DNA of 64,000 bases from a virus. Taxonomy: Duplodnaviria; Caudoviricetes. Every line of letters begins with the position of its first letter. Position 1 is the first letter of the stretch. A program made the position numbers and the translations under genes. The notes beneath the pieces were generated by a model. That model saw only the letters and a list, made by a program, of their open reading frames with translations. It did not search any database and had not been told where the DNA came from. Where the stretch lies: IMG/VR virus record IMGVR_UViG_3300035454_000933, positions 154 to 64,153 of that record. One strand, given 5' to 3'. Positions 266-55,782 of the stretch are shown piece after piece.

Positions 266-287
266 GACCCCATTCTCATGTCACGAC
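266..287 (-). promoter_or_regulatory. Late promoter motif GTCGTGA-CAT-GAGAAT
   Basis: Matches the recurrent consensus. Confidence 0.6.
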
Positions 288-307
288 GAACGGCTTGATA
301 CAGCCTG

Positions 308-847
308 TTACTGGCCGGCTGGCGCGGGGTAGTTCGGGATCTTGCCGATCGCCTCGCTGCCCAGCGTGCCCGTCGAGTCGATGCCGTACCGCCCAGTGCT
401 GCCGATCTCGCGGCCGAACTCCAGGTAGGTGGCGTTGTCGCTGGCGCGCATTTCCCGCTGCGTGCGGTTGTTGTCCAGCGCCACATCACGCCCGAACTTC
501 ACGCCCAACCAGCCGCGCGCCTCGCGCGAAATCGAAACGGCCTGCTCCAGTGGGTCCGGCGGCATGTAGTAGCCGCCACCGTTGCCCTGGCCACCACCAC
601 CGGTGGCCGCGGACTTGATGGCGTCGGCCTGCACCGCAGAGCCCGCCATGGCGCGCCCGACGTCGCTGTTGGACTTGGCCAGCTCCTGCACGGCCTTCCA
701 CTTTTCGATATCGGCCTTGGCCTGCCACTTCGACGCCGCGATGCGGGCGCTGGCCTGCTTCTCGACGATCAGCGCAGCGTTCGGCGCTGAGCAACCGACC
801 ATAAAAAACGCCACGGAGGCGAGGAAGGCGTAGAAAAAGCGTCGCAT
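308..847 (-). CDS. Predicted lipoprotein, function unknown (179 aa)
   Basis: MRRFFYAFLASVAFFMVG|C signal II lipobox; SD AAAGGAG upstream. Confidence 0.7.
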   Translation of the reverse strand: MRRFFYAFLASVAFFMVGCSAPNAALIVEKQASARIAASKWQAKADIEKWKAVQELAKSNSDVGRAMAGSAVQADAIKSAATGGGGQGNGGGYYMPPDPLEQAVSISREARGWLGVKFGRDVALDNNRTQREMRASDNATYLEFGREIGSTGRYGIDSTGTLGSEAIGKIPNYPAPAGQ

Positions 848-867
848 GAAAGCTCCTTTGAAAAAAC

Positions 868-1536
868 TCAGATAGCCGCTTGGCGCAGCGCCAGACGGAA
901 GCGCACCACCTCGATCGTGTCGACCATGTCGGCGCCGGCAGCGATCACCAGGTCGGGTGAGGTGGTGGCCGTGTAGGCGGAAGCCAACAGCTTGACCCCG
1001 TTCAAGAACACCATGATGGAGCCCGGCGCGTAGCCACCGGTGACGGTGAACGCCGTCTGAGCATCGGCTGTCGGCACGATGAGCACCGAGTCGAAGGCTA
1101 TGCCGAGCGCGGCGCTGTCCAGCTTGGACTTGTCGGATGCAGACATGAACCCAGCGACGGAATCCGTGGCGACGGCGTGCGCAGATCCACCGGATCCGGT
1201 GTGGTCGAACAGCAGACCGATGTTGTCCTTCAGCGCGTCAACGATTTCCTGCAAGGTGTCGAAGTCAGGGTCATCAGACGCCAACAGAACATCAATGGCC
1301 GCCAGCGCGGTGTCGACCGCCTCCAGATGCGTTCCGTGCGTTGCCAACGTGGATGCGTTGGCGCCCAGAGCGTCAACGATGGCCTGCACGGACGCCAGCA
1401 ACGGTTCGTCGCTGGACAGCACGGCGTCTATGGCGGTTAGCGCGGCGCGCAGCCGCAGGACGTCGTCCTCCAGGGGGTTGTCCTGGTGCGGAAGTGGCAG
1501 GTCAATGCCGGGCGTGCGATCGTCGATGACTGCCAT
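868..1536 (-). CDS. Tail fibre/baseplate-associated protein (222 aa)
   Basis: N-terminus DDRTPGIDLPLPHQDNPLEDDVLRLRAALTAID and DFDTLQEIVDAL resemble tail-fibre head segments; coupled to the upstream baseplate genes. Confidence 0.55.
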   Translation of the reverse strand: MAVIDDRTPGIDLPLPHQDNPLEDDVLRLRAALTAIDAVLSSDEPLLASVQAIVDALGANASTLATHGTHLEAVDTALAAIDVLLASDDPDFDTLQEIVDALKDNIGLLFDHTGSGGSAHAVATDSVAGFMSASDKSKLDSAALGIAFDSVLIVPTADAQTAFTVTGGYAPGSIMVFLNGVKLLASAYTATTSPDLVIAAGADMVDTIEVVRFRLALRQAAI

Positions 1537-1538
1537 GA

Positions 1539-2744
1539 TCAGATCGTCATGAAGCGCAGGTTCTTGACCCGCGGGCGCGCCGCCGTGTTGCCGGTCAGGT
1601 TCAGCTTGATCTGCACCATCGCCTCGGTCACGCCGGTCACCTCGTGCGTGATCTCGTAGAAGCCGTTGTCGCCAGGCGCCGAGCCCACGAACGGCACCGT
1701 AGCCCAGGTGTCGCCGACGTCAGCCCCCTTGAACTGCACACCGACCGACGAGCCGCCGGGGATCAGGGCGTCGAAGATGACCTTCACGCGCACACCGGTT
1801 CCGCCTTTGATGGCGCGCGACACGTAGCTGTCGGTGCCGTTGACCGTGCCGACGATCAGCTCGGTACCCGGGAAAAGGGATGGGCCCAGGTCGGCGTCGC
1901 CGAACATGCGCGCCGTCACGGTCACGTTGCCGGTGACGGGAGCCGCCAGGCGCACCGGCTGGCCGCTGGACACCGTCACCACCTGGCCACCAGGGATGGA
2001 CAGCTGGAACTGCACGCTGGTCTGCGAGCCGGGCTCATCGACCAGGGCCGACACCATGAGGTCGGTCGCGTTGACCACCGCCACGGTGCCGAGCACGACG
2101 CTCTTGTCGGACTGCGTGTAGACGGCGCGGTGCAGGCGGAAGGTGAGGTCGCGATCCTGGTGCGGCGTCCAGGTCGCGTTGTTGCTCGACGACAGCAGCA
2201 CACCCACGGTGTAGGGTTGGCTGGTCACCCAGCGCTGGTTCACGCGGTCGAATTTTCCCAGCTCGGCCATGCGCAGCTCGGAGACAGCGTCGTCGCACAT
2301 CGCCACCAGGGCGTACTGCGTGTTGGCGAACAAGAAAATGGGCGCCGGGAAGGTCAGGCGAGTGTGCGCCGTCAGCGTGCTGATGTCGGCCGGCTTGACG
2401 CGGACCTCACCGATCACACCGGACGCCGGAACACCGCTCTCGACCTCGCGGATTTGCACGATGATGTCCGAGTCACCCTTGGCCTTGAACCACAGGTCGA
2501 CGGCGCTGATCTGGCAGGCGGCATCCAGGCTGAAGGTCTGCGCCAGCGGGTCGAAGAAGGTCTGGCGCACGGTGCTGATGATGCGCCGGACTTCGGACAC
2601 GACGGTTCCGGAACCGGTGAACGTGGCCGCACCATGGGAGCCACCAGCGCCGACGAACGACACGCGCTTGGTGCCCGCCGGGACGTTGGCAGGAATCGTG
2701 ATCTTCCCGTTGATAACGCCGTTGGCGTCTGCGATCAAAGGCAT
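1539..2744 (-). CDS. Virion structural protein resembling the C-terminal part of DUF4815-type baseplate proteins (401 aa)
   Basis: DPLAQTFSL, ISAVDLWF and WTPHQDRDLTFRL motifs; follows the 648-aa gene. Confidence 0.65.
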   Translation of the reverse strand: MPLIADANGVINGKITIPANVPAGTKRVSFVGAGGSHGAATFTGSGTVVSEVRRIISTVRQTFFDPLAQTFSLDAACQISAVDLWFKAKGDSDIIVQIREVESGVPASGVIGEVRVKPADISTLTAHTRLTFPAPIFLFANTQYALVAMCDDAVSELRMAELGKFDRVNQRWVTSQPYTVGVLLSSSNNATWTPHQDRDLTFRLHRAVYTQSDKSVVLGTVAVVNATDLMVSALVDEPGSQTSVQFQLSIPGGQVVTVSSGQPVRLAAPVTGNVTVTARMFGDADLGPSLFPGTELIVGTVNGTDSYVSRAIKGGTGVRVKVIFDALIPGGSSVGVQFKGADVGDTWATVPFVGSAPGDNGFYEITHEVTGVTEAMVQIKLNLTGNTAARPRVKNLRFMTI

Positions 2745-2759
2745 TTTGAGTCCTTGGAA

Positions 2760-4706: not shown

Positions 4707-4718
4707 GTGAGAGGATCC

Positions 4719-5201: not shown

Positions 5202-5222
5202 GAGTGACCCTGTTTGAAGCTC

Positions 5223-5244
5223 CGGGTCATTTTGGCGTCACGAC
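5223..5244 (-). promoter_or_regulatory. Late promoter motif GTCGTGA-CGC-CAAAAT (leadered)
   Basis: Intergenic, 36 nt before ATG 5201. Confidence 0.7.
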
Positions 5245-5291
5245 GACTGTGGATGCGATCATGCCGTCGGCGGCGCGGATGGTGAGGAAGG

Positions 5292-5579: not shown

Positions 5580-5582
5580 CCT

Positions 5583-8473: not shown

Positions 8474-8496
8474 GGTCTGACTCAAATATTGGACTG

Positions 8497-8518
8497 AGGC
8501 CGATCATGGCATCACGAC
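8497..8518 (-). promoter_or_regulatory. Late promoter motif GTCGTGA-TGC-CATGAT (leadered)
   Basis: Intergenic, before the esterase tailspike. Confidence 0.65.
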
Positions 8519-8552
8519 GCCGACGCCCGGCACACGCCTCTGGACGCACCAC

Positions 8553-10223: not shown

Positions 10224-10245
10224 GTTGGTGTCCTCAATGGGTGGA

Positions 10246-14746: not shown

Positions 14747-14768
14747 GCACCCATTCTGACGTCACGAC
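14747..14768 (-). promoter_or_regulatory. Late promoter GTCGTGA-CGT-CAGAAT-N6-ATG (leaderless)
   Basis: Exact spacing. Confidence 0.75.
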
Positions 14769-20290: not shown

Positions 20291-20570
20291 GCTCGGTGTA
20301 GACCTTGTTCAGGCGCGCGTAGACGTCTTCATCGAGCGGATCGAGTTCCTCCAGAACCCAACCTTCCGGTGCGCGCACGGTGAGCACCTTCAACGCAGAA
20401 AGCCAACCGCAGACAGCCTGCAGCCAGGACGTTGGCTCAACACCGTCGATCATGCGGGCGAACTCCACCTGGATGGCGATCTCGTCGGCCATCTGGCGGC
20501 GGGCAAAGGTGAACTGGCCAACGCCTTCGACAGGCACGTTGAAGTCGGACAGGTTCGGTGCACGGGACAT
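20226..20570 (-). CDS. Tail assembly chaperone, gpG-like (114 aa from ATG 20570)
   Basis: Between tube and tape measure; SD GGGAGA; acidic. Confidence 0.75.
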   Translation of the reverse strand: MSRAPNLSDFNVPVEGVGQFTFARRQMADEIAIQVEFARMIDGVEPTSWLQAVCGWLSALKVLTVRAPEGWVLEELDPLDEDVYARLNKVYTELVDKERSFRRGRSVDSQVPGS

Positions 20571-20590: not shown

Positions 20591-20623
20591 GAAAAAGGCC
20601 ATCCACCAAACCGGTGGACGGCC
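20591..20623 (-). terminator. Intrinsic terminator after the tail tube gene
   Basis: GGCCGTCCACC-GGTTT-GGTGGATGGCC-TTTTT, with a G-U pair valid only on the minus strand. Confidence 0.7.
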
Positions 20624-20644
20624 TCTATTCTGCGGTCACGAATG

Positions 20645-23857: not shown

Positions 23858-23879
23858 GGTCGGATTTTGGCGTCACGAC
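23858..23879 (-). promoter_or_regulatory. Late promoter GTCGTGA-CGC-CAAAAT-N6-ATG (leaderless)
   Basis: Exact spacing. Confidence 0.75.
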
Positions 23880-23886
23880 GCGAGCA

Positions 23887-23908
23887 GGCGTGACGGCACA
23901 CTGACAAC
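23887..23908 (+). promoter_or_regulatory. Late promoter GGCGTGA-CGG-CACACT-N6-ATG (leaderless, divergent)
   Basis: Same architecture on the opposite strand. Confidence 0.75.
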
Positions 23909-26488: not shown

Positions 26489-26510
26489 GGCGTCAATTTT
26501 TGATCACAAC
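26489..26510 (-). promoter_or_regulatory. Late promoter variant GTTGTGA-TCA-AAAATT-N6-ATG
   Basis: One mismatch, exact spacing. Confidence 0.6.
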
Positions 26511-26792: not shown

Positions 26793-26814
26793 GCGTTCAT
26801 TCTGACATCACGAC
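26793..26814 (-). promoter_or_regulatory. Late promoter GTCGTGA-TGT-CAGAAT (leadered, SD GGAG)
   Basis: Directly downstream of a terminator. Confidence 0.7.
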
Positions 26815-30174: not shown

Positions 30175-31056
30175 TCAATTGCTCCGTTTCGATAGACCTT
30201 TTTTCAGATCGCGGAGAAAGCGATCCACCCATTCGGCTGCCTCGTCAGGAGACAGGCCAAAACTTTTCTGGCTGTAGGCCGTCATGGCCTCGGCGTTCAC
30301 GCCGCGCAGCCGGTGTTCACGGACCGCCTTCGAAAGGCGATCCCGAAAATCAAAGTATGACGTCACGCCGGTATCGAGGGACTGAGCCCCAAGAGCGGCG
30401 CCGCCAGTTTTTGCGGAAGCATCGGTGACGTAGGACGCCTCCAGCGCTTTCGTCAGATCAAAGCCTCCAGCGCTCCAGGACTTCGCCAGCACGCCGAACG
30501 GCATCGTGGCGACACCGCCAACGGTCTGGTTCACCGGCTGCTGGGAGACTGCGATGTTGGTCCAGCGGACCTTGCTCACGACGCCGACCTTGCTGCCCGA
30601 CTTGGGGTCGATGCGGTCAGACTTCGCCAGCACCTTGCCGCCAACGCTGGGGTACCAGCGCCGCGGCGGGTTCAGCTTGGTCATGGAATCCCAGACCATG
30701 TTCGCGCGCTCGGAAAGCGGGGTGTCGCCCGTGAACAGCTGCGCCTTCACAAAGGTGGACTTGCCGTCAATGCGGACGTCAACCGGCGTGCCAATCTCCC
30801 ACATTTCTGGATCCCGGATATCCAACATCTTAGCCACGGCCGGCATGGACTTGTGGTCGATGTCGATGTTACCGAAGCGCAGATAGTGCGACGCCGACTC
30901 TTCCAGAGCCTTCGCCAGCACAATCTCGTTTTGCTGGTCCTTGGCCTCGTTGGCCGCCTCCAGGTAGATGAACCGGTTCCGGCCCTCCTGCGCAGGCGTC
31001 GCCTTCAGCATGCATTCGATGCTGAGGTATTCCGGCAGGTGGGCGAGTTGATCCAT
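30175..31056 (-). CDS. Prohead protease (293 aa)
   Basis: FIYLEAANEAKDQQNEIV, GNIDIDH, YPSVGGKV; position. Confidence 0.8.
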   Translation of the reverse strand: MDQLAHLPEYLSIECMLKATPAQEGRNRFIYLEAANEAKDQQNEIVLAKALEESASHYLRFGNIDIDHKSMPAVAKMLDIRDPEMWEIGTPVDVRIDGKSTFVKAQLFTGDTPLSERANMVWDSMTKLNPPRRWYPSVGGKVLAKSDRIDPKSGSKVGVVSKVRWTNIAVSQQPVNQTVGGVATMPFGVLAKSWSAGGFDLTKALEASYVTDASAKTGGAALGAQSLDTGVTSYFDFRDRLSKAVREHRLRGVNAEAMTAYSQKSFGLSPDEAAEWVDRFLRDLKKGLSKRSN

Positions 31057-31079
31057 GGGTGGGATTTTTTCGTCACGAC
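31057..31079 (-). promoter_or_regulatory. Late promoter GTCGTGA-CGA-AAAAAT-N7-ATG (protease/scaffold/capsid operon)
   Basis: 16-nt spacing, no SD. Confidence 0.75.
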
Positions 31080-35931: not shown

Positions 35932-35953
35932 CCCAGCAGGATAAGGTCACGAC
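35932..35953 (-). promoter_or_regulatory. Late promoter GTCGTGA-CCT-TATCCT-N6-ATG
   Basis: Exact spacing; motif overlaps the MuF stop. Confidence 0.75.
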
Positions 35954-37101: not shown

Positions 37102-37123
37102 GGCGGAAGTATGGGGTCACGAC
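37102..37123 (-). promoter_or_regulatory. Late promoter GTCGTGA-CCC-CATACT-N6-ATG
   Basis: Exact spacing. Confidence 0.75.
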
Positions 37124-37126: not shown

Positions 37127-37201
37127 TGGAGCGGGCCGCGGGAATCGAACCCGCCTGGTCAGCTTGGAAGGCTGATGCCTGAACCGATCGGCCAGGCCCG
37201 C
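37127..37201 (-). tRNA. tRNA-Gly (anticodon TCC)
   Basis: Acceptor GCGGGCC/GGCCCGC, anticodon arm TCAGC-CTTCCAA-GCTGA, T arm GCGGG-TTCGATT-CCCGC, encoded CCA; 75 nt. Confidence 0.9.
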
Positions 37202-37912: not shown

Positions 37913-37989
37913 TGGTTGCGAGGGCCCGATTTGAACGGGCGACATTCTGGGTATGAACCAGACGCTCTACCAGGCTGAGCTACCACGCG
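37913..37989 (-). tRNA. tRNA-Met (CAT), initiator-like
   Basis: 77 nt, C1:A72 mismatch, anticodon arm TCTGG-TTCATAC-CCAGA, T arm, encoded CCA. Confidence 0.85.
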
Positions 37990-40335: not shown

Positions 40336-40357
40336 TTACCCAGTGTGCCGTCACGAC
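40336..40357 (-). promoter_or_regulatory. Late promoter GTCGTGA-CGG-CACACT-N6-ATG (portal)
   Basis: Exact spacing; shares CGTGACGGCACACTG with the 23889 site. Confidence 0.75.
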
Positions 40358-40540: not shown

Positions 40541-43159
40541 TCAGGCAAACAGCATGCAACCCGGGTCCGTGTGGCGGACCAGGATGTTGTCGCGCTCCGA
40601 GCAGCGGCCAGCCTCATACGCGGTGCACTTGCCACAGGTGCCATCCCGCATCACCAGCCTGGCATCCTCCATCAACGCGCCAACGACGGGCGTGTAGGCC
40701 TCCAGCGCCTTCTGAACCGACGTCTCCTTCGGTTTTTCCTCCACCGGCAAGATGAAGGTGTTTGTGCCGTAGGCCCGGGCCCAGGCCACGTCGCACAGCA
40801 TGTTGGCGTAGCTGGTGTGCGGGTCGATGCCGACCTTCACCACCCGGCGCTTGAACTTGCGCTCTTCCTCGTCCTTCTCGGCCACCAGGGCGGTGCGCGT
40901 GAAGTGCAGGAACGCCAGGTCTTTGCAGACCGCCCGCATTTCGCGCTTGCCCTTTTCGAGCACCTCCTGCACCAGGGCGGACGGGTCCGGGAACAGGCAA
41001 TGCGTTTTCTGGAACCGGCCCATCGACACCTGCATGCACTTGTACTGGTCGAGCGTGACAGTGAACTGATCGCGAGCCTCATCGGTGGTCCGGCGGTCGC
41101 TGGCGTCCTGCTTCGGGGTGTCGCCCCAGCGGATCATGTCGCCTTCCATGTTGCCGTAGCCGGCCAGAAACACCTTGCCGTGGTGCCGGCGCGCAAAGGA
41201 CTTGGCGCTGTCGTAGTTGGGCAGCGTCTCCACCACGCAGCACTGGACGCCGTAGATCTCCATCAGCTCGTCGCACCGGCGCCAGGGCGACGCGTCCGGA
41301 TCCTGTGGCGTGGGCGAGATGTAGATGTACTCCAGGTGGATGGTCGCCTGGCGGCCGTCAGGCATGCGCTCCTTGATGATGGCCACGATGAAATTGCCCA
41401 TCTGGTCCAGCCCCATGAACGTGCCCTTGGCGGAGAGCTTCCACATCAGGCCAGCGGCCATGCCGGCGGCAGCGCAGGCGTTCAGAATCTCCAGGTTGAC
41501 CGGGACCTGGGATGGGTCGGTATAGGGCTTGCCCAGCTTCCGGTTGAAGAAGTTCTTCATGTCGTCGGCGTTGTGGTACGCCTCGATGATCTCGCGCGGT
41601 GAGATCGTCGGTGACAGGAACTGGGGGTAGTGCACGGAGCGGATCTCGGCGTCCGGGTTTTTGGCAATCCACTCGCCGTCCTGCGGATCGTCGATCCAGC
41701 CCGAGCAGCTGACGCACCGGTACCGGTACTCACCCAGAGCGACGGCCTTTCCACGGTTCACGCGGCGCGGCGCATCCGGGTCGTAGCCGATGCACTCCGG
41801 GAAGTGCTCATCGAGCACCTGCAGGTGGCCACAGCACGGGCAGCGCGTGTGGAACTGGTGTTGGGTGCCGCGCTTGAACCACCAGTGGATATCCGAATCC
41901 GGCCAGTTGGCCGTGGAGCCCATCAGGGTGTAGCGCAGCTCCGACGCGGACATACGCTCGCGGACCTTCTCCATGTCCGCGATCGCCATCTCCTGCACCT
42001 CGTCGAACGAGATGATGTCCATGGGAAACGACTCGGTCGCCGTCTTGCCGGTGGTCCAGAGGAAGTGGAAGCGCGACGTGCCCATGTTGCGGATCAGCAC
42101 GTTGCCCTCGCCACCCCGGGTGCCGGTGGCCTGCTTGTCGGTCATGAGCGTGTAGACTTCCGGGATGGTCCGGACGATCGGCATGAAGCGCTCCGATGAC
42201 TTGCCAGAGGCCAGCATCTGAGACGGCATGAACATGCCGATCTTGGCCGGCGCGAAGCGCAGCGCCAGGTAGAGCATGGCCAGCATTTCAAACACCGTGA
42301 AGCCCACCTGGGTGCACTTCATGATCACGTCGACACGACCGAACGCCTCGGCGAGCGTGGACGGGATCAGGTCGTAGATGAACCGCATGGCCGGACGGTT
42401 CGACAGCGTGAACGGGTGGCCGTCCACCTTCAGACCGCTGGCCTCCAGGCGCTCGCACCACCCGAGGAATGTCTCACCGGTCAGCAGGGTCTGCTGCTCG
42501 GGGGTGAGCTCGACGGCGTGCTCCAGGAACTCGGCGCCAAAGCGCTGCTGGTACTCCAGGTCGCCAGCCGACTCGGCGGCCTTGCGAGTTTCCTCCGGCA
42601 GGTGCGGATTTTGCAGGCTGTCGAGCTGGTGGGACGCCCACTCCGGGTCCCGCAGACCCAGGCGCCAGACCTTGTAAAACCCGTTCTGCTTTCCGTAGGC
42701 GCCGGACAGGATCCACGCCGACCCGTTGTGCACGCGCAGGGCCGGGCTGAGCACGTCGAACCAGACGTCGTCGAAAGACTCGATGTGGCGCGCGTCATCG
42801 ACCACGATCAGGGCGTACTGCTCGAAGACCTCCTGCTTTTCCTCCAGGCTGTAGAAATCGATGATGCCACCAGACGTCAGCTCGATGCGGCGCGTGTTCA
42901 CCCGGCGCTTGATCAGCGGGTCGATCGCGCGCATGACGCGGCGCCGGACCTCCACCATGTCGTCGTCGGTGGCCGCAAAGAAGGCCACCGGCCGCTTGCC
43001 GACCAGGGCGCCGCGTTTGGACGTGAGAAGGACGTCGATGCCCAGGGTGGTCTTGCCGCCCTGCTCCCCCATGGCCACCGCATTGAAACGCTTCGATCCG
43101 TCAATCGCCTGCTTCTGGGCGTCGTGGAGGGTGGGTAGGGTGATGCGAACTTGGGCCAT
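40541..43159 (-). CDS. terL: Terminase large subunit, GpA-type, with an extra N-terminal degenerate terminase ATPase domain (872 aa)
   Basis: Second domain IMKCTQVGFT and ISFDEVQEM, Zn motif CPCC...CVSC, nuclease MGLDQ; first domain MGEQGGKTT and IVVDDA. Confidence 0.85.
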   Translation of the reverse strand: MAQVRITLPTLHDAQKQAIDGSKRFNAVAMGEQGGKTTLGIDVLLTSKRGALVGKRPVAFFAATDDDMVEVRRRVMRAIDPLIKRRVNTRRIELTSGGIIDFYSLEEKQEVFEQYALIVVDDARHIESFDDVWFDVLSPALRVHNGSAWILSGAYGKQNGFYKVWRLGLRDPEWASHQLDSLQNPHLPEETRKAAESAGDLEYQQRFGAEFLEHAVELTPEQQTLLTGETFLGWCERLEASGLKVDGHPFTLSNRPAMRFIYDLIPSTLAEAFGRVDVIMKCTQVGFTVFEMLAMLYLALRFAPAKIGMFMPSQMLASGKSSERFMPIVRTIPEVYTLMTDKQATGTRGGEGNVLIRNMGTSRFHFLWTTGKTATESFPMDIISFDEVQEMAIADMEKVRERMSASELRYTLMGSTANWPDSDIHWWFKRGTQHQFHTRCPCCGHLQVLDEHFPECIGYDPDAPRRVNRGKAVALGEYRYRCVSCSGWIDDPQDGEWIAKNPDAEIRSVHYPQFLSPTISPREIIEAYHNADDMKNFFNRKLGKPYTDPSQVPVNLEILNACAAAGMAAGLMWKLSAKGTFMGLDQMGNFIVAIIKERMPDGRQATIHLEYIYISPTPQDPDASPWRRCDELMEIYGVQCCVVETLPNYDSAKSFARRHHGKVFLAGYGNMEGDMIRWGDTPKQDASDRRTTDEARDQFTVTLDQYKCMQVSMGRFQKTHCLFPDPSALVQEVLEKGKREMRAVCKDLAFLHFTRTALVAEKDEEERKFKRRVVKVGIDPHTSYANMLCDVAWARAYGTNTFILPVEEKPKETSVQKALEAYTPVVGALMEDARLVMRDGTCGKCTAYEAGRCSERDNILVRHTDPGCMLFA

Positions 43160-43180
43160 GTCTCATTATTTTCTCACGAC
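43160..43180 (-). promoter_or_regulatory. Late promoter GTCGTGA-GAA-AATAAT-N5-ATG (terL)
   Basis: 14-nt spacing. Confidence 0.7.
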
Positions 43181-44151: not shown

Positions 44152-44173
44152 GACGGCAGTGTAGGGTCACGAC
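44152..44173 (-). promoter_or_regulatory. Late promoter GTCGTGA-CCC-TACACT (leadered, SD GGAG)
   Basis: Intergenic, before the 303-aa gene. Confidence 0.7.
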
Positions 44174-44174
44174 G

Positions 44175-44550: not shown

Positions 44551-44573
44551 TTACATCAACAATTTTGTTGATG
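44551..44573. promoter_or_regulatory. Palindromic operator-like site CATCAACAA-TT-TTGTTGATG
   Basis: Perfect 9-bp inverted repeat (44554-44573) in the AT-rich gap upstream of the 113-aa gene. Confidence 0.5.
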
Positions 44574-44586
44574 GTGTTTTTTCGTT

Positions 44587-48800: not shown

Positions 48801-51262
48801 GGCTCCGGAGAAGCGGCGTCGGCAGCCGTCGGCACGTGCGCCACGCCCAGGGCGGCCAGCGCGTCGGCGCCGTATTTGTGCCAGGCCTGGGCGTCCTTGT
48901 TGTCTGACCCAGCCAGATGCTGGGTGTTTTCCTGCAGGGTGGCGATGTCCTTGTTTTTGAAGGCGTCCACCATGACGGAGCCCGTCAGATTGAAATGCGA
49001 CGTCACCGGCGGTACCGGTGGGGTTTTGCTCAAGTACGCCAGCGCCGCGGCGGCGTAGGCATGAGCCGCCTTGGCGCCAGCGGACTCCAGGCCATCGGCC
49101 AGCGTCTGGTGGTCATCAATTTTTGCGACGTTGCCACTGTTCAGAGCCTGCTCGATATCGTCGATCACCTCAGACCAGTGAACCGAGACGAGGCCGGTCG
49201 GCTTCGCTGGCTTCGAGCTGGTGGGCTCCGTGGCCACGGCCGCGGTAGCGCCAGGCTCGCCCAGGCCGGCGAGCGCGGTCTGCGCGAGAAGAACCTGCTT
49301 CTTGGCGTAGGTCTGCTTGGCTGCACCCTTGGCGTCGATGAACGCCTGCAGGCCGGCCGTGTCGCCAGCGAAGGCCATGGCCTCGATCTTGGCGACCGCG
49401 GCGTTGTGGCTCTTGGCGTTGGTGTTCGCGTCCGGCAGCTTCTGCTTGTACCAGGGGATCGACTGCAGGTTCTGCAGCTGCTGGGACGAGAGGGTGCTGG
49501 TGGACGGCGCCGCAGGCGACATGGTCACGTTGCCCGGTACCGGAGCCACATCGGCCAGGACCTTGGCCACATTGGCCTGCACGCCAGGCTTCAGGCTGGA
49601 CCACGGAACCTTTGCAACGGCATGCGCGGTGGTGTTCGGGATGCCGGTGGCCGTGGCGTAGACCGACGGGTCGCTGGCGGCCAGGTACTGCGCCTTTTTT
49701 CCCCAGGACAGGCCGTCCCACTGGTACCCGACCGAACCGGCGGCTGGCGGGGCCTCGCCGCCCTGCTTCACCCAGTGCCCGTCCTTCAACACCAGGGTGC
49801 CGCCGTCGGCGCCGGGTTTTGTGTCGCCCTCCTTGGGGCCGCTTGCCGACCACTGCATCAGGCTCCCGCCGTCGCTCGTGGCGGGCGCGCCGGAGTGCAC
49901 GAAGCCCTGCTTCTCGTAGAAGCCGACAGCGTCCTTGGTGGCGTAGAGCTTGATCGGCAGGTCGCCATAGCTGGCGAATTTCTTGGCCTCGGCCAGAAGC
50001 TGGGTGCCAGCACCCTTGTCCACGGAACCGATGTGGTGCACCTCGACGCTGTCGCCGGTCTTGCCGAACGCGATCGCCGCGGTCACCTTGCCGCCGGAAT
50101 CCTTGATGACGAACTTGTTCTCGTAGTTAGAGAACAGCGCGTTGTTGATCTCTTCAACAGCGGCGGCCGGGCCAGGCTTGATCAGCTTTTGGAGCTCGAC
50201 GGCTTCCGTGATGCCGTCCCCGACGAACTGCGGGCCGGTTGCAGGGGCAGCGGCAGGAGCCGGTGCCGGCTTCGCCCCACCCTTGGCGTGCTCCAGCGCC
50301 GCGGCGTGCAGGGCCACGAGCTTCTTGCTGTTGGGCGTCTTGCCATGCCACATCTTCTTGTGCGGCTCGGCGGCGTCCTGCACCACCTGGACGTTACCGG
50401 CGTTGGCGTGGTCGATGATCTTCTGGGCCGTCTTCTCGTAGAGGGCCTTCACGCCGGTGACGGTCTTGCCCTCCTGGAAGGTGGGCATCTGCAGCGGGGC
50501 TGCGGTGGGCGCCGTGACCGGCTCCGGTGCCGGCGCCTCCGGCTTGAACTGCTCGGGCGCCTTCGCCACCAGGTGCATGCCGAACTTCTCAGCCAGCACC
50601 TTCTGCGCAGCGATCGCCTTCTCGCCAAAGTCCGCAGCGTCGAAGGCCTCCTGCTCGTCGTCGCCGTTGTTCAGCGCCAGCACGAAGCCGTCGACCTTGT
50701 CGTCCAAGCTGGCGGGCAGCGCGCCCTTGAGCGCGAGAGCGAGGCCGGCGTAGCCGCCCAACCCCTGCACCTCGGTTGGCTCGGCAGCGGTCGCAGCCGG
50801 CGCCGTGTTGGCCTCTCCGGACACTGCGCCATGGGTACCAGCCTTCTGGCCTGGTTTGACCATGTGTGGGCTGCCGTACAGACCGAGGATGTGGTTTGCG
50901 ATCTTGGCCAGCTTCTGGGAATAAGAATTCGTGCCGTAGCCCGCGCCCAGAATGGCGGCCACGTTACCTGTGTCAGACCACTCCTTCAGTTTTGCCAGCG
51001 CGCCGTTGAAGGTCTTGGCGTTGACGTTCGAGTCCGGGATCTTGAGGGCATCCAGCATCTCCGGCGTGAAGTGCGGAGACGGCACCACTGCGTGCGATTG
51101 GGGTGCGTGAGCGACTGGTGCTCCTTTGGGGGCGGGCTTGTCGTCGTGAAGTTTGTGCCAGCGGCCGTTGTAGAGGTAATGCTTCCCCGAGTGCTTGAAC
51201 TTGCCCTCGTGAACGATGGACTTCAGCAATAGGACGAGGCGTGGGGATTGATTGGCGGCCAT
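45866..51262 (-). CDS. Polyvalent protein: GNAT + WGR + HipA/PI3-4-kinase-like + R-S-E ADP-ribosyltransferase (1798 aa)
   Basis: GNAT DKGAGTQLL and AVGFYEKQGF; WGR KSWSVSVHGSTLKTEYGKIGG; kinase GGSNPGG, WYCK, KSEVLA, DAWLGNWD, DN, RVDAG; ART LYR, CTS, EKE. Confidence 0.85.
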   Translation of the reverse strand: MAANQSPRLVLLLKSIVHEGKFKHSGKHYLYNGRWHKLHDDKPAPKGAPVAHAPQSHAVVPSPHFTPEMLDALKIPDSNVNAKTFNGALAKLKEWSDTGNVAAILGAGYGTNSYSQKLAKIANHILGLYGSPHMVKPGQKAGTHGAVSGEANTAPAATAAEPTEVQGLGGYAGLALALKGALPASLDDKVDGFVLALNNGDDEQEAFDAADFGEKAIAAQKVLAEKFGMHLVAKAPEQFKPEAPAPEPVTAPTAAPLQMPTFQEGKTVTGVKALYEKTAQKIIDHANAGNVQVVQDAAEPHKKMWHGKTPNSKKLVALHAAALEHAKGGAKPAPAPAAAPATGPQFVGDGITEAVELQKLIKPGPAAAVEEINNALFSNYENKFVIKDSGGKVTAAIAFGKTGDSVEVHHIGSVDKGAGTQLLAEAKKFASYGDLPIKLYATKDAVGFYEKQGFVHSGAPATSDGGSLMQWSASGPKEGDTKPGADGGTLVLKDGHWVKQGGEAPPAAGSVGYQWDGLSWGKKAQYLAASDPSVYATATGIPNTTAHAVAKVPWSSLKPGVQANVAKVLADVAPVPGNVTMSPAAPSTSTLSSQQLQNLQSIPWYKQKLPDANTNAKSHNAAVAKIEAMAFAGDTAGLQAFIDAKGAAKQTYAKKQVLLAQTALAGLGEPGATAAVATEPTSSKPAKPTGLVSVHWSEVIDDIEQALNSGNVAKIDDHQTLADGLESAGAKAAHAYAAAALAYLSKTPPVPPVTSHFNLTGSVMVDAFKNKDIATLQENTQHLAGSDNKDAQAWHKYGADALAALGVAHVPTAADAASPEPAANEAFNGWKAAMAAGKQPTKEQAEAYAALEDSDPDTAMEAFNDAIQSNIAGDVSSMADDEFDASLQLATEKVHNLHGWALSGKPVGVHPSVLESLESLDISDLQEMLEVGSLKPEVKAHIEKMIKPLSEDEKAALNNLTLENLESMSKLQLSKPMLAHIKKLIVRHKMSEPVEPAKISVASQVFHNTTGTHSKSWSVSVHGSTLKTEYGKIGGTQQTTVKHLASPQAAAAMKTTLIKQKSANGYTYQGYGTHEHDADAQQGPKEGDTKMGADGMLILKDGHWVKMQTGDDGAGDWVHSPNDPGFSGAGTIGNHEGLVAFEPSMGAEYHDEASMQANTGDPAAQATTLQELVQKMSAAGHTVPPLHMLQKLDPSFSASDMPGAGSSASSTTAAAPAMDAWAQTGKQGGSNPGGKFKDPTGQEWYCKFPNDADTAKSEVLAAKLYALAGLSSQDAQLVTKAGKVGIASKWVNIKPASSATALAKVEGVHAGFAVDAWLGNWDVIGLALDNCQIGPDGKAHRVDAGGSLEYRAQGAKKPFGPKVDEIDTLRDAKLNPKSAAVFGKMTVADLTASVAKVAAIDDSAIRALVFDHGPGTEAQKKAMADTLIARKNDLIARFPKAAKPPKKALDPTALPINPASLPKVHDFSNWNGAGVGLSSKPHVNKSNEAVEQAMRSLAATGNMVALADFKFQEVNKDTGEPTGKMLPVSKHPSKHVLQYQQDLLQVLDEVANPPQPLKVFRSTDVGSLAALNAAFPPKPFGTTVAKVQSNEKLGFWVALGAIGAPGNFKPKVLSNYTTTAVEAAKAKYKSASKLAKHFISSVQSSGSYNDLFRDGKSQDHQGNLLKDVAQAALAHATAMPEGTCLYRWQKMSPQMLEHIMSAKDGTVFQATGPMCTSYSPTATKGFGTHRVKVVYAKGAKAVESFGSGGFAGEKEVTTLPNARFVILSKKMVPDEEHGNPGAQRLELEILMLPPDLGI

Positions 51263-51284
51263 CCCCGCATTGTTGGATCACGAC
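51263..51284 (-). promoter_or_regulatory. Late promoter GTCGTGA-TCC-AACAAT-N6-ATG (polyvalent protein)
   Basis: Exact spacing. Confidence 0.75.
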
Positions 51285-51295
51285 GATGTGGGTCG

Positions 51296-51961: not shown

Positions 51962-52055
51962 ACCTGTCCAAGGATGAGTCCTGATGAACAGCGCGGCTGG
52001 CGATGGACTAGACCGCCGGGGTGCCCCCCTTGCCGCGCCGAGTCACCAGTTTACA

Positions 52056-52367
52056 TCACGACGCCCGCTTGACCTGCGCCCCTCGTCCGGTCGGCCGGAT
52101 CACCACGCCCAGGCCCGGGACCTTGAACGGCTTGTTCTTCAGCTGGTGGGCCTCGGTCTTGGTCAGACCCTTGCCCTCCCAGACGTAGTCCGGGTACCGC
52201 TTGTTGAAGCGCTTGGCCTTGCGCTCGGCCTTGAGCACCGACGGGTACTCGCGGTAGATCATCTGCCGGCCAGGATCCTGGGACGGCCAGCCCGGCAGGT
52301 GCACGAGCAGGTAGCCGAATTTCTTCGGCGGCTTCTTGGGCTTTGGCTCAGCCTGCGGATCGGCCAT
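52056..52367 (-). CDS. Basic hypothetical protein (about 103 aa)
   Basis: ORF from ATG 52367, overlapping the upstream gene. Confidence 0.5.
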   Translation of the reverse strand: MADPQAEPKPKKPPKKFGYLLVHLPGWPSQDPGRQMIYREYPSVLKAERKAKRFNKRYPDYVWEGKGLTKTEAHQLKNKPFKVPGLGVVIRPTGRGAQVKRAS

Positions 52368-52593
52368 GGGCCAGCCCCTTCTGGTACCACGACACAGCCG
52401 ATCCATCGGCCCAGCCGCGGCAGTTCCGGCACTCGTAGCGCGCTGACAGATTGCCTGGCTGCAGAGGACCGAAGTCGTGCCCAGGGCATGCGTCCAGCTT
52501 GGCGTGGTTGGCTTTGACCGCGTCCCAGATGCCGAGCAGGGCCTCGCGCCGCAGGCCGGTGACCGAACTGAGCGTGTCGACGCTGTCGGCCAT
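52348..52593 (-). CDS. Small Cys/His protein (about 81 aa)
   Basis: LDACPGHDF...YECRNCRG. Confidence 0.6.
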   Translation of the reverse strand: MADSVDTLSSVTGLRREALLGIWDAVKANHAKLDACPGHDFGPLQPGNLSARYECRNCRGWADGSAVSWYQKGLAHGRSAG

Positions 52594-52654
52594 CAGACCA
52601 CCAGAACCCAGAAGGGCACGGTCCACCACATCCACATGTACATGGGGTAGATCA

Positions 52655-53086
52655 TCAGGCTGGGCTCGAACTTTGTGACCAACCCTGGATGACGGAGGCT
52701 TCAGCCACGCACTCAGCGGAATGGCTGACGCCGTCGGTCGCGCCGCAGCGATCGCCTTGGCACGCAGGAACGGCCGTGGCCACCTGGTAGGGCATCCACT
52801 CGCAGTAGCGGCCGACCGGCTTGCCGTCGAGATCGACAGCGGGCTCCTCGCCTGGCTGCAGCAGCGTGCACGACAGCACCGGGAACTGGCGGCCCATGAT
52901 GTCGGTGACCAGCACGTTGATCATGCGGTCGCCCCAAACGCTGATGACGGTGGCGTCCAGCGGCTGGCGATTCGTGGTGTCGGTCGGATCGCTTGCGGTC
53001 TGCATGGGAACTGGCCCGGTCTGGTCGCTCTTGCTTGGTCGATACCAGACCTTGCGGCCGACGGTGGGGGTGATGACACGGGACAT
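52655..53086 (-). CDS. Hypothetical phage protein (about 143 aa)
   Basis: TPTVGRKVWY...PLDATVISVW...INVLVTD...YCEWMPYQ; SD GGAG before ATG 53086. Confidence 0.7.
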   Translation of the reverse strand: MSRVITPTVGRKVWYRPSKSDQTGPVPMQTASDPTDTTNRQPLDATVISVWGDRMINVLVTDIMGRQFPVLSCTLLQPGEEPAVDLDGKPVGRYCEWMPYQVATAVPACQGDRCGATDGVSHSAECVAEASVIQGWSQSSSPA

Positions 53087-53175
53087 AAGCACTCCAGGTA
53101 GCTCCAGCAGGCGGCTGGCTCGCATTCACTCAATCGCCGCCACCAGCCGAAACCGGAAAGGCGTCCGACGGGCGG

Positions 53176-53604
53176 TCAGGCGCCAGCGGCAGCGGCGACG
53201 TCCACCGGGTCGGTATCGCCGGCCACGGTGCCAGCAATGGCCGCGACGTTGAGCAGCGCCGCGCGCGCCGCGATCATGTCCTCGGCCTGCTTCATCAGGC
53301 CCACGATGTGTTGGGCGTGCGGGTCGCCAGCGGCCGCGGCCGCCTCGACAGCACCAGCGGCGCCGGGCACGTCGAAGCCGAACTTCACCGCCTGCACCGA
53401 TGTGCCGGCCGGCAGGAACTCGGCGTCCCAGGTGACCGGCAGCATGTCCTCGCCACCCTCGCCCTCGGGCCGCACGCCGTCGATCTGGATCGGCGGCACC
53501 GACGACACGAAGCGGCCGTCACCGACGTGCACGAAGGATGCCGCGCCACCGGTTGGCAGCGAGACGGACAGGGCGGCGCCCCGGGGCAGTTTGAAAGAGA
53601 ACAT
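53176..53604 (-). CDS. Hypothetical protein (142 aa)
   Basis: SD AAGGA; AT-rich upstream gap with TACAAT/TAAAAT. Confidence 0.65.
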   Translation of the reverse strand: MFSFKLPRGAALSVSLPTGGAASFVHVGDGRFVSSVPPIQIDGVRPEGEGGEDMLPVTWDAEFLPAGTSVQAVKFGFDVPGAAGAVEAAAAAGDPHAQHIVGLMKQAEDMIAARAALLNVAAIAGTVAGDTDPVDVAAAAGA

Positions 53605-53643
53605 GGCGAGTCCTTGTTGCGTTAAAAATTTTATTGTATCAGC

Positions 53644-55086
53644 TCAAAAAGGCTGATCGTCGTCTTCAGCAACAGGGGCCGCAGCCGGCGCCTCGGAGCG
53701 CACCTCGTCGTCGCGCGGGAACAGCTCGCCGGTCTCCGCGTGCACCGCGCGCCGGCCGGTCAACATTTCCCAGCGCCGCACCGCCACATCAACAAATTTG
53801 GGGTCGAGGTCGCACACGCGGGCGATCAGGCCCATGCGATCGGCCATGATCAGCGTGGTGCCGGAGCCCGAGAACTGGTCGATCACGATATCGCCCGGGC
53901 GGCTGCTGGGCTTGGCCAGCTTCTCCCACAGGCCCACCGGCTTGGTGGTCGGGTGCAGCTCGGAGCGTGCCGGCTTGTCGTGGTAGATCACGGACCCTGG
54001 CGCCTCTTCGATGGTCGCCTGCCCGTCCACGATCAGCACCGTGTCGCCCACCGTGATGGCCCAGCGCCCGTCGCTGAGCTGGCGCACCGGCCCGTGCTCG
54101 CCGTACTCGACGACTGTCGTGCGCTTGCGGCCGCCATACCAGCGGTGCGCGGCTCCCGGCTTCCACCCGTAGAGGATCGGCTCGTGCTGCCACTGGTAGT
54201 CGCTGCGCCCCAGCACCAGGGAGTTCTTGCGCCAGATGAGGCAGCCCGAGAGCTTGAAGCCGGCGTCGCGGAACGTCGATCGGAAGTTCAGCCCCTCGGT
54301 GTCGGCGTGCGCCACATACACCGGTGCGCCCGGCTTCATGATGCCGAACATGGTCTGGTACGCCGCCAGCAGGAAGGCCCGGAACTCGGCGTCCTTCATG
54401 CTGTCGTTTTTGATCTTGCCCGCCAGCGCCGACTCATAGTCCACGTTGTACGGCGGGTCGGTGATGCACAGGTCGGCCAGCTCCCCTTGCATCATCCGGT
54501 CCCAGAACTCGGCGGACAGCGAGTCGCCGCAACCCACGCGGTGCGGGCCGCACTGCCAGATATCGCCCTCGCGGCTGTGGGGCACGTCGGGCACGGGCGG
54601 GACGGCGTCCGGGTCACCACCGGCGCCCTCGTCCTCTTCCTCCATGCCCTCAAACAGCTTGGCCAGGTCTTCCTCGGCAAAGCCGGTGTACGCCTCCAGG
54701 TCGAAGCCGCCAGCCCGCAGGTCGTCGGTTTCCAACTTCAGCATGTCCAGATCCCAGGCCGCGCCGAACGCGTCCGGGCTGCGGTTGTCCCAGATGACCT
54801 GGGCGCGCCGCTCCTCGTCGGACAGGTGCGACAGGTCGATCGCCGGTACCCGCTTCAGACCGATCTTCTTGGCCGCCAGGATCCGGCCATGCTCAGCCAG
54901 GATGACACCGTCCGCCACCAGGATCGGGCTGGTGAAGCCCACCCGCTGCATGTTGGCGGCCAGCGCCTCGATCTGGGCCGGCGGGTGGGTCTTCGAGTTG
55001 CGCGCATACGGCAACACCTCGTCGACCAGCACCATCTTGATCTCGCTGGGCAGGCGCACGCCAGCGTCGAGTTCGTGCGCGCCCAT
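53644..55086 (-). CDS. ParB-like N-terminus + N4/N6 DNA methyltransferase (480 aa)
   Basis: PYARNSKTH...GFTSPIL...EHGR; TDPPYNV; HPTTKPV; DQFSGSGTT. Confidence 0.9.
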   Translation of the reverse strand: MGAHELDAGVRLPSEIKMVLVDEVLPYARNSKTHPPAQIEALAANMQRVGFTSPILVADGVILAEHGRILAAKKIGLKRVPAIDLSHLSDEERRAQVIWDNRSPDAFGAAWDLDMLKLETDDLRAGGFDLEAYTGFAEEDLAKLFEGMEEEDEGAGGDPDAVPPVPDVPHSREGDIWQCGPHRVGCGDSLSAEFWDRMMQGELADLCITDPPYNVDYESALAGKIKNDSMKDAEFRAFLLAAYQTMFGIMKPGAPVYVAHADTEGLNFRSTFRDAGFKLSGCLIWRKNSLVLGRSDYQWQHEPILYGWKPGAAHRWYGGRKRTTVVEYGEHGPVRQLSDGRWAITVGDTVLIVDGQATIEEAPGSVIYHDKPARSELHPTTKPVGLWEKLAKPSSRPGDIVIDQFSGSGTTLIMADRMGLIARVCDLDPKFVDVAVRRWEMLTGRRAVHAETGELFPRDDEVRSEAPAAAPVAEDDDQPF

Positions 55087-55760
55087 CAGAAGTCGTCCTC
55101 TGGCTCGGCGTCGGAGCCCACACCCATGTCGCCCGTGCCCATGTCCGGCGGCGCAATGATGCCCCGGGCCTCGGACGGCACCGAGCGTTCAACCAGCACC
55201 GCGGTCGGCGCGTCCCCGGTCTTGGCCTCGGTCGTGATCCCGTAGGCCCGGCACTCGCCCGCCTGGACCAGCGAGAGCGTCTCGGCCGTGATCTTCGCCA
55301 GCTTCGCCATCTCGAAGGCGGCCGGAATGTCCGCGGTCGGACCCGACGCCTTCTTGATCGCGTTGTAGGCGATGTTGCGCGGCGCCGACCACTCGGTGCG
55401 GTGCCGGTCGATCACCCGGGCGCGCGCGCTGACCGCCTCGTCACGCGAGTACTCCGCAGCAGCCTCGGCCGCGGCCGTGGTGTCATCAAGGGGTTTGCCT
55501 AGTTCGCTCATTTTGCGTTTGAAGTTGTCGGCCAAGGTGCCGGCACGGGACGACATATCCCGAATACCGACCTTCGCCTTTTTCCAGCTCTGCAGCCGAT
55601 GCCAGCGCCGCACCCAGTACGTCGGGCACCCGACCTCAGCGCCCACCGACTCCAGCGTCGAGTAGGGCTGACCCTCGAAAATAACGCGCGCCGCGGCCAT
55701 GATCTCCATGGACGGCTCCGGGCCGTAGCGCGCGATCGGTTCACCTGCAATTCTTCCCAT
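55086..55760 (-). CDS. Putative terminase small subunit (224 aa)
   Basis: N-terminal HTH-like segment (TLESVGAEVGCPTYWVRRW..LQSW); late promoter 15 nt upstream; precedes the ParB-methylase as terS often does. Confidence 0.55.
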   Translation of the reverse strand: MGRIAGEPIARYGPEPSMEIMAAARVIFEGQPYSTLESVGAEVGCPTYWVRRWHRLQSWKKAKVGIRDMSSRAGTLADNFKRKMSELGKPLDDTTAAAEAAAEYSRDEAVSARARVIDRHRTEWSAPRNIAYNAIKKASGPTADIPAAFEMAKLAKITAETLSLVQAGECRAYGITTEAKTGDAPTAVLVERSVPSEARGIIAPPDMGTGDMGVGSDAEPEDDF

Positions 55761-55782
55761 GGCGCAATCTTACGTTCACGAC
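55761..55782 (-). promoter_or_regulatory. Late promoter GTCGTGA-ACG-TAAGAT-N6-ATG (putative terS)
   Basis: Exact spacing; last copy before the early region. Confidence 0.75.

Follow-up and report, generated by a model that had tools for sequence, protein, structure and literature searches.

A 64,000-bp stretch of phage DNA (the window; bases 154-64153 of a 64,153-bp IMG/VR contig with a CheckV completeness of ~70%) carries the 16-base element GTCGTGA-N3-NANNNT directly ahead of many of its gene starts, and this raises the question of whether the element is a promoter, what would read it and how the genes behind it are translated. The initial annotation had taken it for a late promoter that gives rise to a largely leaderless set of mRNAs. 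We consider it likely that GTCGTGA-N3-NANNNT is a late-class promoter of this phage clade that is devoid of a -35 element and often leaderless; its activity, transcription start sites (TSSs), timing, use of sigma-70 and cognate factor we infer from sequence.

The long open reading frames (ORFs) of the window, which has a GC content of ~64%, are nearly all on the minus strand, as are 19 of the 21 copies of GTCGTGA; shuffled sequences held 11.6 +/- 3.5 copies, with none reaching 21. The full 16-base pattern was found 14 times on the minus (gene) strand and not once on the plus strand, compared to first-order Markov simulations in which it averaged 0.14 copies and never exceeded 2. Heptamers with one mismatch in the same architecture added copies at 26504 (GTTGTGA), 20636 (TTCGTGA) and, on the plus strand, 23887 (GGCGTGA), as well as a less certain copy at 30363 within the protease gene. 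The A and T at positions 2 and 6 of the hexamer (A2/T6) were found to be absent behind GTCGTGA at 30576, 59113, 59242 and 60839, copies that had already been set apart on this ground; an exact copy at 52056, whose hexamer (AAACTG) is without the T at position 6, and plus-strand copies at 51143 and 55231 with no hexamer had been missed. The approximately five minus-strand copies without a hexamer correspond to chance expectation.

Alignment of 79 exact sites from the window and six relatives gave the consensus GTCGTGA-Y-G-N-C-A-N-A-(A/C)-T, with no information upstream of the box, i.e., no -35 element. When the hexamer is taken as a -10 element, the box spans -22 to -16, centered near -19, and the Y-G pair falls at -15/-14. 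G was present at -14 in 49 of the 79 sites and T at -15 in 27, which amounts to a partial extended -10, and C was preferred over T at -12. A-11 and T-7 were demanded by the search pattern; among heptamers, the A-11/T-7 pair was carried by 69 of 106 on the gene strand vs 1 of 24 on the opposite strand. Box and hexamer are separated by a fixed 3 nucleotides (nt), and the box, 7 bp long and asymmetric, is not a true palindrome.

The heptamer, 3-nt spacer and A2/T6 hexamer were recovered ahead of all 11 gene starts for which they had been reported, with the hexamers as given (Table 1), and the ATG follows the hexamer after 5 nt at 43159, 7 nt at 31056 and 6 nt at the other nine starts. Across the eight genomes scanned, an ATG that opens an ORF of at least 60 amino acids (aa) was detected at offset 6 in 26 sites and at offset 7 in 8 (34 of 80 sites); when GTG and TTG starts were also allowed, just one more case at 5-7 nt was gained, a doubtful 62-aa GTG ORF, such that ATG accounts for 34 of 35. 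Because 6 nt separate hexamer and ATG, the A of the ATG stands at the canonical +1 position, at the same distance as the mapped 5' ends of Thermus phage Lalka27a (10.64898/2026.04.20.719267), and at sites with a 5- to 7-nt spacing the mRNA 5' end would lie on or beside this A. That these genes are preceded by no Shine-Dalgarno (SD) sequence was borne out by the best anti-SD pairing of the 19 nt upstream of each start, the median of which was a negligible -2.4 kcal/mol for the 11 leaderless genes vs -5.8 kcal/mol for 27 operon-internal genes. An SD-like role of GUGAU in the box, which pairs with AUCAC of 16S rRNA, was ruled out, as the box is 14-16 nt from the ATG and the duplex reaches only about -2.4 kcal/mol.

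Six further copies (281, 5238, 8512, 20636, 26808 and 44167) proved to be followed by leaders, as described, of 10, 27, ~17-29, ~57, 38 and 24 nt, respectively, and clear SDs were seen upstream of the capsid, sheath and tube genes, again in agreement with the initial annotation. Within the window, a leaderless gene is always the first of its unit and its product is low-copy or enzymatic, and the genes of the abundant capsid, sheath and tube proteins are internal with SDs. The earlier idea that leaderless starts tune virion stoichiometry would fit this layout, although the layout does not prove it.

The motif search in related phages that had been proposed at the outset extended the element to the clade. 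The nearest isolates are phages of ~86-96 kb, and myoviruses wherever a description was seen: Aeromonas phage ST4, Pseudomonas phages Dolphis, Jeremy and Touem01, Bordetella phage PHB04, Enterobacter phage phiT5282EW, E. coli phage ECML-606-1, Yersinia phage fHe-Yen8-01 and, more distantly, Morganella phage Mecenats66; at the scale of the clade, the whole phage would measure ~90 kb. The motif was present in six of seven isolated relatives, with GC contents of 47-66% and with Aeromonas, Pseudomonas, Bordetella, Enterobacter and Yersinia as hosts (three orders of Gammaproteobacteria and one betaproteobacterium). With the window included, 80 exact sites were found in seven of eight genomes, all but one on the gene strand; ST4, Dolphis, PHB04, phiT5282EW and Touem01 have 10-14 each and fHe-Yen8-01 has 7, and reversed-pattern controls gave zero in the five genomes scanned without mismatches. 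Among 38 IMG/VR loci around portal homologs (568 kb), 34 carried the motif, with 109 copies on the gene strand vs 4 on the other strand and 68 in the leaderless arrangement.

Individual promoters were also found to be conserved. The motif precedes the portal gene in 32 of 34 IMG/VR loci, with the ATG at 6-7 nt in 29 and unconserved flanks on both sides, and the promoters of the terminase, portal, 384-aa protein, protease, both adaptors, tube initiator and giant ART-type protein are common to orthologs. The divergent pair at 23864-23902 is conserved as well, and in five relatives its plus-strand copy reads GGCGTGA, GTAGTGA or ATCGTGA, all of them weak forms of the heptamer. The 278-aa adaptor gene is leaderless in six of seven isolated relatives, Mecenats66 being the one without a recognizable motif upstream of it. 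No clear motif was detected in the Mecenats66 genome; k-mer enrichment gave no replacement, and its aligned upstream regions revealed by eye merely a loose GTGAT...TAAT pattern. A further subclade (L074, genome G001; IMGVR_UViG_3300022744_000026) has zero GTCGTGA and instead GGCGTGA, ATCGTGA or GACGTGA in unchanged architecture (9 leaderless sites, all forward; control count of 0), variants that leave CGTGA(C) as the invariant core. In the complete relatives, the motif occurs only in modules for virion, lysis, packaging and cargo functions and is missing from the replication/early region, which is why we label the promoters 'late' and presume them to be active at that stage. Every sequence test run, among them strand bias, anatomy, spacing, conservation, restriction to certain modules and the terminators upstream of many copies, supported the promoter and 'largely leaderless' readings with which the analysis began.

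These findings are consistent with a model in which host core RNA polymerase, most likely with primary sigma, would read the hexamer as a -10 element, with G at -14 serving as a partial extended -10 and no -35 element, and a phage-encoded factor, itself presumably made from an earlier promoter of sigma-70 type, would read GTCGTGA at -22 to -16 in place of the -35. Where an ATG lies 6 nt (5-7) past the hexamer, transcription would begin on or beside its A and the first gene would be read from a leaderless mRNA. The predicted leaderless set comprises the terminase, portal, 384-aa head protein, protease, two adaptors, tube initiator, two giant proteins and the 224-aa protein; for genes further down the units, e.g., those of capsid, sheath and tube, translation would proceed via SD sites.

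The occurrence of one identical motif over very different hosts argues for a phage-encoded reader. Domain searches were performed in six frames on the contig and on ST4, Dolphis, PHB04 and Touem01, the four relatives being full records. In these five genomes, the Lpa domain (BPP1_LPA, PF25716) had no match at E <= 1; the sigma domains PF04542 (Sigma70_r2) and PF08281 (Sigma70_r4_2) had none, with matches in 11 and 14 of 14 controls, respectively, and with no search aimed specifically at T4 gp55-like proteins; and the RNA polymerase beta subunit (PF00562) had none, its controls being matched. T7-type polymerase (PF00940) was also without match in the contig and relatives, a weak negative as the control genomes were equally silent. 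No polymerase is listed in the deposited annotations of the ST4 and Dolphis stretches that were viewed. Because no sigma, Lpa or polymerase domain turned up, host RNA polymerase is likely the enzyme at the motif promoters, and A-11, T-7 and G-14 appear to suit primary sigma.

Among the small conserved non-structural genes, P0001 and P0002 (Table 1) stand out; this group also includes genes for DNA-binding proteins of 74 and 90 aa that are found in all or most motif-bearing relatives. P0001 and P0002 were both mapped in the window and in ST4 and are neighbors in each, and P0001 homologs were detected in every relative examined. Next to them lies a divergent control region that has sigma-70-like -10 hexamers in relatives and a full -35/-10 pair in PHB04. 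The P0001 family comprises 919 clusters at 50% identity, and the matches examined were without a functional name. Some distant members have a P0002-like domain fused N-terminally (P0178 and P0199) and others C-terminally (P0176 clearly, P0190 and P0192 weakly); this fusion in both orders, a Rosetta-stone sign, suggests that P0001 and P0002 act together. A few long forms in the family include sub-threshold helix-turn-helix domains. Three prophage-like bacterial loci (a Steroidobacter metagenome-assembled genome (MAG), Paraburkholderia solisilvae and a Nitrosomonadales MAG) have P0001 homologs of 36-40% identity and carry the motif as well. P0001 was assigned to no Pfam or PHROG family, and its AlphaFold2 model (predicted local distance difference test score, pLDDT, of 88) had no Foldseek match in the PDB at E <= 0.001 and a best Z of 2.8 in a wide VIA-align search. 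A profile search of P0001 against PDB sequences was without match, the ESM Atlas returned viral hypothetical clusters only, and BLASTP of P0001 and P0002 against Lpa was not significant. P0002 had no Pfam match either, and for its model (pLDDT of 82.5), only non-significant zinc-ribbon neighbors were found, e.g., Rpb9 and Elf1 at E ~1. We propose this pair of zinc proteins as a tentative candidate for the factor that reads the box. A GTCGTGA copy at 60839-60845 (minus strand) is located 47 nt upstream of the P0001 start, without the N3 hexamer and with TAGAAT 10 nt further on; it may be an autoregulatory site in the P0001 control region. A sigma-70-like promoter at 61403-61432 (plus strand) is oriented away from P0001.

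Several points weigh against the proposed promoter and its candidate factor. The models of P0001 and P0002 match no known transcription factor fold, and factor and motif do not go together strictly, as tblastn located a P0001 homolog of 33% identity at the end of the Mecenats66 record, in which there is no clear motif. A terminator-like hairpin stands right after a few copies of the motif, which would be unexpected of a simple promoter. Leaderless mRNAs are generally regarded as rare and inefficiently translated in Gammaproteobacteria. The literature searched yielded neither 5' ends of transcripts nor expression timing nor binding data from the clade.

The rival that survives best concerns the reader and predicts the same TSS and the same leaderless outcome: the reader of the whole 16-bp element would be a phage-encoded subunit that confers specificity in the manner of sigma and has escaped recognition, or a sigma appropriator taking the place of regions 3 and 4. 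Box and -10 adjoin at a fixed spacing to form a contiguous 16 bp with C over T at -12, the motif is identical across hosts of different orders, and P0001 and P0002, which are without a known fold, could represent a novel RNA-polymerase-binding factor. The best neighbors of the P0002 fold, albeit non-significant, are zinc-ribbon subunits or factors of RNA polymerase. This fold resemblance, however, is at E ~1 and reflects a generic zinc ribbon, neither Sigma70_r2 nor Sigma70_r4_2 was present in the five genomes, and primary sigma factors read just such an invariant A-11 and T-7 together with G at -14. We rate a sigma-like subunit as unlikely.

Stoperators of phage L5, which bind repressor, are asymmetric, numerous and co-oriented with transcription, and the sites described here share these three properties. 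GTCGTGA could on this model be the operator of a phage repressor, overlapping weak constitutive extended -10 promoters and silencing them in the lysogen. The clade looks temperate: ST4 has an integrase, Touem01 is predicted to be temperate in its own paper, and the P. solisilvae locus (L097; NZ_JBHUHI010000001.1, 4478632-4499186), with its P0001 homolog and nearby motif copies, is embedded in a chromosomal contig of 4.5 Mb, which suggests that the clade has members that are integrated prophages. Against an operator, box and hexamer stand a rigid 3 nt apart and the motif is absent from the early/replication region; moreover, with weak hexamers (C at -12), no -35 and T-15 in approximately one third of sites, unaided sigma-70 activity should be low. 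An operator function is thus regarded as very unlikely.

A few copies of the motif, approximately one per genome, are followed within 0-3 nt by a strong hairpin and T-run (window 20594-20642, with the weak heptamer TTCGTGA; ST4 3897; Dolphis 28081; phiT5282EW 4151; fHe-Yen8-01 30137). These hairpins could stabilize 5' ends, mark decayed sites or hint at a terminator-resistant polymerase. Terminator-like hairpins were also found 5-52 nt upstream of 12 motif sites in six genomes, including the terminase and portal promoters of the window, as expected of transcription-unit boundaries. Together with the frequency of terminators within the late region, the hairpin-followed copies would be in keeping with the box as the loading site of a Q-like antiterminator, by which polymerase starting there turns terminator-resistant; in addition, a NinI-like phosphatase gene lies just downstream of the P0001 and P0002 genes, an order reminiscent of the nin-Q region of phage lambda. 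Arguing against this, there are 14-20 copies per genome instead of one late promoter, no PDB entry was found to resemble P0001 or P0002 in sequence or fold, and the ATG directly after most copies leaves no room for a promoter-proximal pause element. The chances of a Q-like system are small.

Least credible is an element that acts in RNA, as a processing site or translational enhancer that marks starts on long read-through transcripts: the late genes are nearly all on one strand, so such transcripts would hold every copy, and at 35947 the upstream gene ends with the TGA of the box, but an invariant A2/T6 with free interior is the signature of a DNA -10 element, many copies have a terminator directly upstream, promoters would account for the divergent back-to-back pair at 23864-23902, and the box shows poor anti-SD pairing and is 14-16 nt away from the ATG.

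Within the promoter model, the frequency of leaderless starts was compared by host. Among exact copies, 9 of 14 were leaderless in the window (11 with variants), 7 of 12 in PHB04, 7 of 14 in Touem01, 6 of 13 in Dolphis and 4 of 10 in ST4; the arrangement was rare in enterobacterial phages (phiT5282EW, 1 of 10; fHe-Yen8-01, 1 of 7), in which the same promoters have leaders of 17-42 nt. SD-like purine runs were seen before the portal ATG of phiT5282EW and of three lower-GC IMG/VR loci. At the protease promoter of phiT5282EW (~31031) and fHe-Yen8-01 (~3726), a two-codon ORF, ATG-TTT-TGA, is found exactly where a leaderless start would lie, 13 nt ahead of the real ATG; this could be a relic, or else reinitiation may be fed by it as a leaderless mini-ORF. 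The host pattern would be expected if +1 is at that ATG and leaderless translation is disfavored in Enterobacterales. Combined into one scheme, P0001 and P0002 would constitute a new class of phage late-transcription factor that replaces -35 recognition via GTCGTGA at -22 to -16, and the clade would switch by host order between leaderless (Pseudomonas, Bordetella and Aeromonas) and SD-led (Enterobacterales) expression; as a whole, this scheme is speculative and rather doubtful.

The sites of the window and the two candidate genes are listed in Table 1. By Pfam and homology, the gene order begins with the 224-aa protein and DNA methylase (480 aa), followed by the 1798-aa protein (GNAT and WGR domains), a NUDIX protein and the DUF6900 protein; then the GpA-type large terminase, portal and 384-aa head protein; the 1517-aa superfamily 2 (SF2)-helicase protein, prohead-protease homolog and major capsid protein; and finally adaptors, sheath, tube, tape measure and baseplate. 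The 384-aa head protein, named MuF in the initial annotation, had no Pfam match in our analysis. Downstream of the protease homolog are a 222-aa gene in the scaffold position and the major capsid gene, both with SDs.

Table 1. Motif sites and candidate factor genes in the window. Spacing is counted from hexamer to start codon.
Feature	Positions	Strand	Start codon and spacing or leader	Downstream gene and remarks
GTCGTGA-acg-TAAGAT	55767..55782	-	ATG 55760, 6 nt; leaderless	224-aa protein, then 480-aa DNA methylase
GTCGTGA-tcc-AACAAT	51269..51284	-	ATG 51262, 6 nt; leaderless	1798-aa multi-domain protein (GNAT, WGR)
GTCGTGA-ccc-TACACT	44158..44173	-	ATG 44133, 24-nt leader with SD (ctggag)	DUF6900 protein, 303 aa
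GTCGTGA-gaa-AATAAT	43165..43180	-	ATG 43159, 5 nt; leaderless	Large terminase; intrinsic terminator 5 nt before motif
GTCGTGA-cgg-CACACT	40342..40357	-	ATG 40335, 6 nt; leaderless	Portal
GTCGTGA-ccc-CATACT	37108..37123	-	ATG 37101, 6 nt; leaderless	384-aa head protein; directly after tRNA-Gly
GTCGTGA-cct-TATCCT	35938..35953	-	ATG 35931, 6 nt; leaderless	1517-aa SF2-helicase protein
GTCGTGA-cga-AAAAAT	31064..31079	-	ATG 31056, 7 nt; leaderless	293-aa homolog of annotated prohead protease
GTCGTGA-tgt-CAGAAT	26799..26814	-	ATG 26760, 38-nt leader with SD	73-aa head-fibre-like protein; terminator-like hairpin before motif
Variant GTTGTGA-tca-AAAATT	26495..26510	-	ATG 26488, 6 nt; leaderless	358-aa head-to-tail adaptor homolog
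GTCGTGA-cgc-CAAAAT	23864..23879	-	ATG 23857, 6 nt; leaderless	278-aa adaptor homolog, then sheath and tube with SDs
Variant GGCGTGA-cgg-CACACT	23887..23902	+	ATG 23909, 6 nt; leaderless	290-aa protein; back to back with 23864..23879 site
Variant TTCGTGA-ccg-CAGAAT	20627..20642	-	ATG near 20569, after hairpin and SD	Tail chaperone; site after tube gene, hairpin and T-run at once
GTCGTGA-cgt-CAGAAT	14753..14768	-	ATG 14746, 6 nt; leaderless	392-aa tail-tube-initiator / baseplate protein
GTCGTGA-tgc-CATGAT	8503..8518	-	TTG 8485 or ATG 8473, 17-29-nt leader	~716-720-aa protein
GTCGTGA-cgc-CAAAAT	5229..5244	-	ATG 5201, 27-nt leader	160-aa baseplate protein
GTCGTGA-cat-GAGAAT	272..287	-	ATG 261, 10 nt	127-133-aa protein (window 1-261, contig 31-432); hydrophobic transmembrane-like C-terminal stretch
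P0001	60283..60792	-		169 aa, Cys-rich, 3x CxxC; first gene leftward of divergent control region
P0002	59928..60299	-		113-123-aa zinc-ribbon protein; gene overlaps P0001 gene by 17 nt

Some sites have further features. The promoter of the 384-aa gene begins 3 nt past tRNA-Gly(TCC), which with tRNA-Met(CAT) is encoded on the minus strand at 37127-37201 and 37913-37989, respectively, separated by a gap of ~710 nt without a conserved ORF. At 35947-35953 (minus strand), the TGA of the box doubles as the stop codon of the 384-aa head gene, such that the promoter overlaps the end of the upstream coding sequence. The orthologous promoters of the 160-aa baseplate gene are likewise leadered in relatives. 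Whether the copy at 20627..20642 is a functional promoter is uncertain. The gene after the motif at 272-287 is possibly lysis-related, as ST4 has a copy of the motif before its holin gene.

Taken as a whole, the sites very probably represent a phage-specific promoter class that is real and clade-wide, late and frequently leaderless. The motif would provide a testable map of late transcription units in a widespread, almost unstudied clade of ~90-kb temperate-looking myoviruses, and it can be used for correction of gene starts, e.g., that of the ST4 portal. In the ST4 record (OR261032.1), the annotated portal start at 70060 lies 30 codons into the gene as counted from the motif-linked ATG at 70150; the latter start agrees with the other phages. 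Should the TSSs be confirmed, approximately half of the late units in the Pseudomonas, Bordetella and Aeromonas phages would start with leaderless mRNAs, which is unusual in Proteobacteria, and the enterobacterial relatives, in which the promoter is kept and SD leaders are added, would offer a natural comparison to find out in which cases leaderless translation is tolerated, and for what reason. The box-reading factor could redirect host RNA polymerase in a new manner, and the L074 subclade is useful for co-variation analysis against P0001 and P0002. A compact 16-bp promoter would be a useful genetic part if it is off without its factor.

Neither this motif nor the promoters of this phage clade were found to be described in full-text literature searches, and comparison was made to systems with related features. 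Extended -10 (TGn) promoters of sigma-70 also need no -35, and G-14 and T-15 are partly present before NANNNT in the phage element; by contrast, the invariant part of the latter is at -22 to -16, where the extended -10 consensus has nothing, and its -12 position prefers C, not T. The start-associated sequences of Cluster K mycobacteriophages and the L5 stoperators are similarly short, asymmetric repeats that are co-oriented before many gene starts. The Cluster K sequences contain a ribosome-binding site, whereas in the element described here a -10-like hexamer lies at +1 distance from the ATG with no SD.

Closer parallels are provided by Thermus phages, whose host itself commonly uses leaderless mRNAs. 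Phage Lalka27a has dense late promoters without a -35, a conserved upstream base, leaderless transcripts and a divergent pair, in all of which it resembles what is predicted for the clade examined here, and the Lalka portal genes have weak DNA similarity to the portal gene of the window. No P0001 homolog was found in Thermus phages. The 16 late promoters of Lalka27a have a special -10 (TAGGGT), C at -25 and no -35; for half of these, 5' ends were mapped six nt downstream from the TANNNT -10, and most transcripts are leaderless (10.64898/2026.04.20.719267). The authors infer a phage-encoded specificity factor, report a divergent late-promoter pair between two late genes, and had earlier seen leaderless transcripts in Thermus phage YS40 (phiYS40) (10.64898/2026.04.20.719267). 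The two systems differ in motif (TAGGGT with C at -25 vs a GTCGTGA box) and in host (Thermus vs Proteobacteria, in which leaderless mRNAs are unusual).

The likeness to the late promoters of phage P1 that had been drawn at the outset held for the architecture, in which P1 is the nearest known system, and not for the activator or the box. In P1, for which 11 late promoters have been reported (PMC10695390), as predicted for this clade, many late promoters are scattered through a myovirus genome of similar size (~94 kb), each with a -10 hexamer and a conserved box just upstream instead of a -35. Those of P1 depend on the activator Lpa (gp10), the gene of which is under a sigma-70 promoter, and also on host SspA. 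The P1 annotation (NC_005856) refers to the box as the '-22 region' and gives LPpac as ATGTGACTT-N4-TACCCT. The P1 boxes, ATGTGACTT and AAGTTACTT, are, however, a 9-bp inverted repeat near -22, by contrast to the 7-bp asymmetric GTCGTGA near -19; the distance from box to hexamer varies in P1 (4 nt at LPpac and 9 nt at LPhot) and is fixed at 3 nt here; and P1 leaders are ~35 nt at pacA and 22 nt at hot, whereas the clade promoters are often leaderless. The contig and four complete relatives have no homolog of Lpa, to which P0001 and P0002 are unrelated. Because box sequence, symmetry and spacing differ and an Lpa homolog is lacking, we judge the promoters of this clade not to be members of the P1 type but to work like those of P1.

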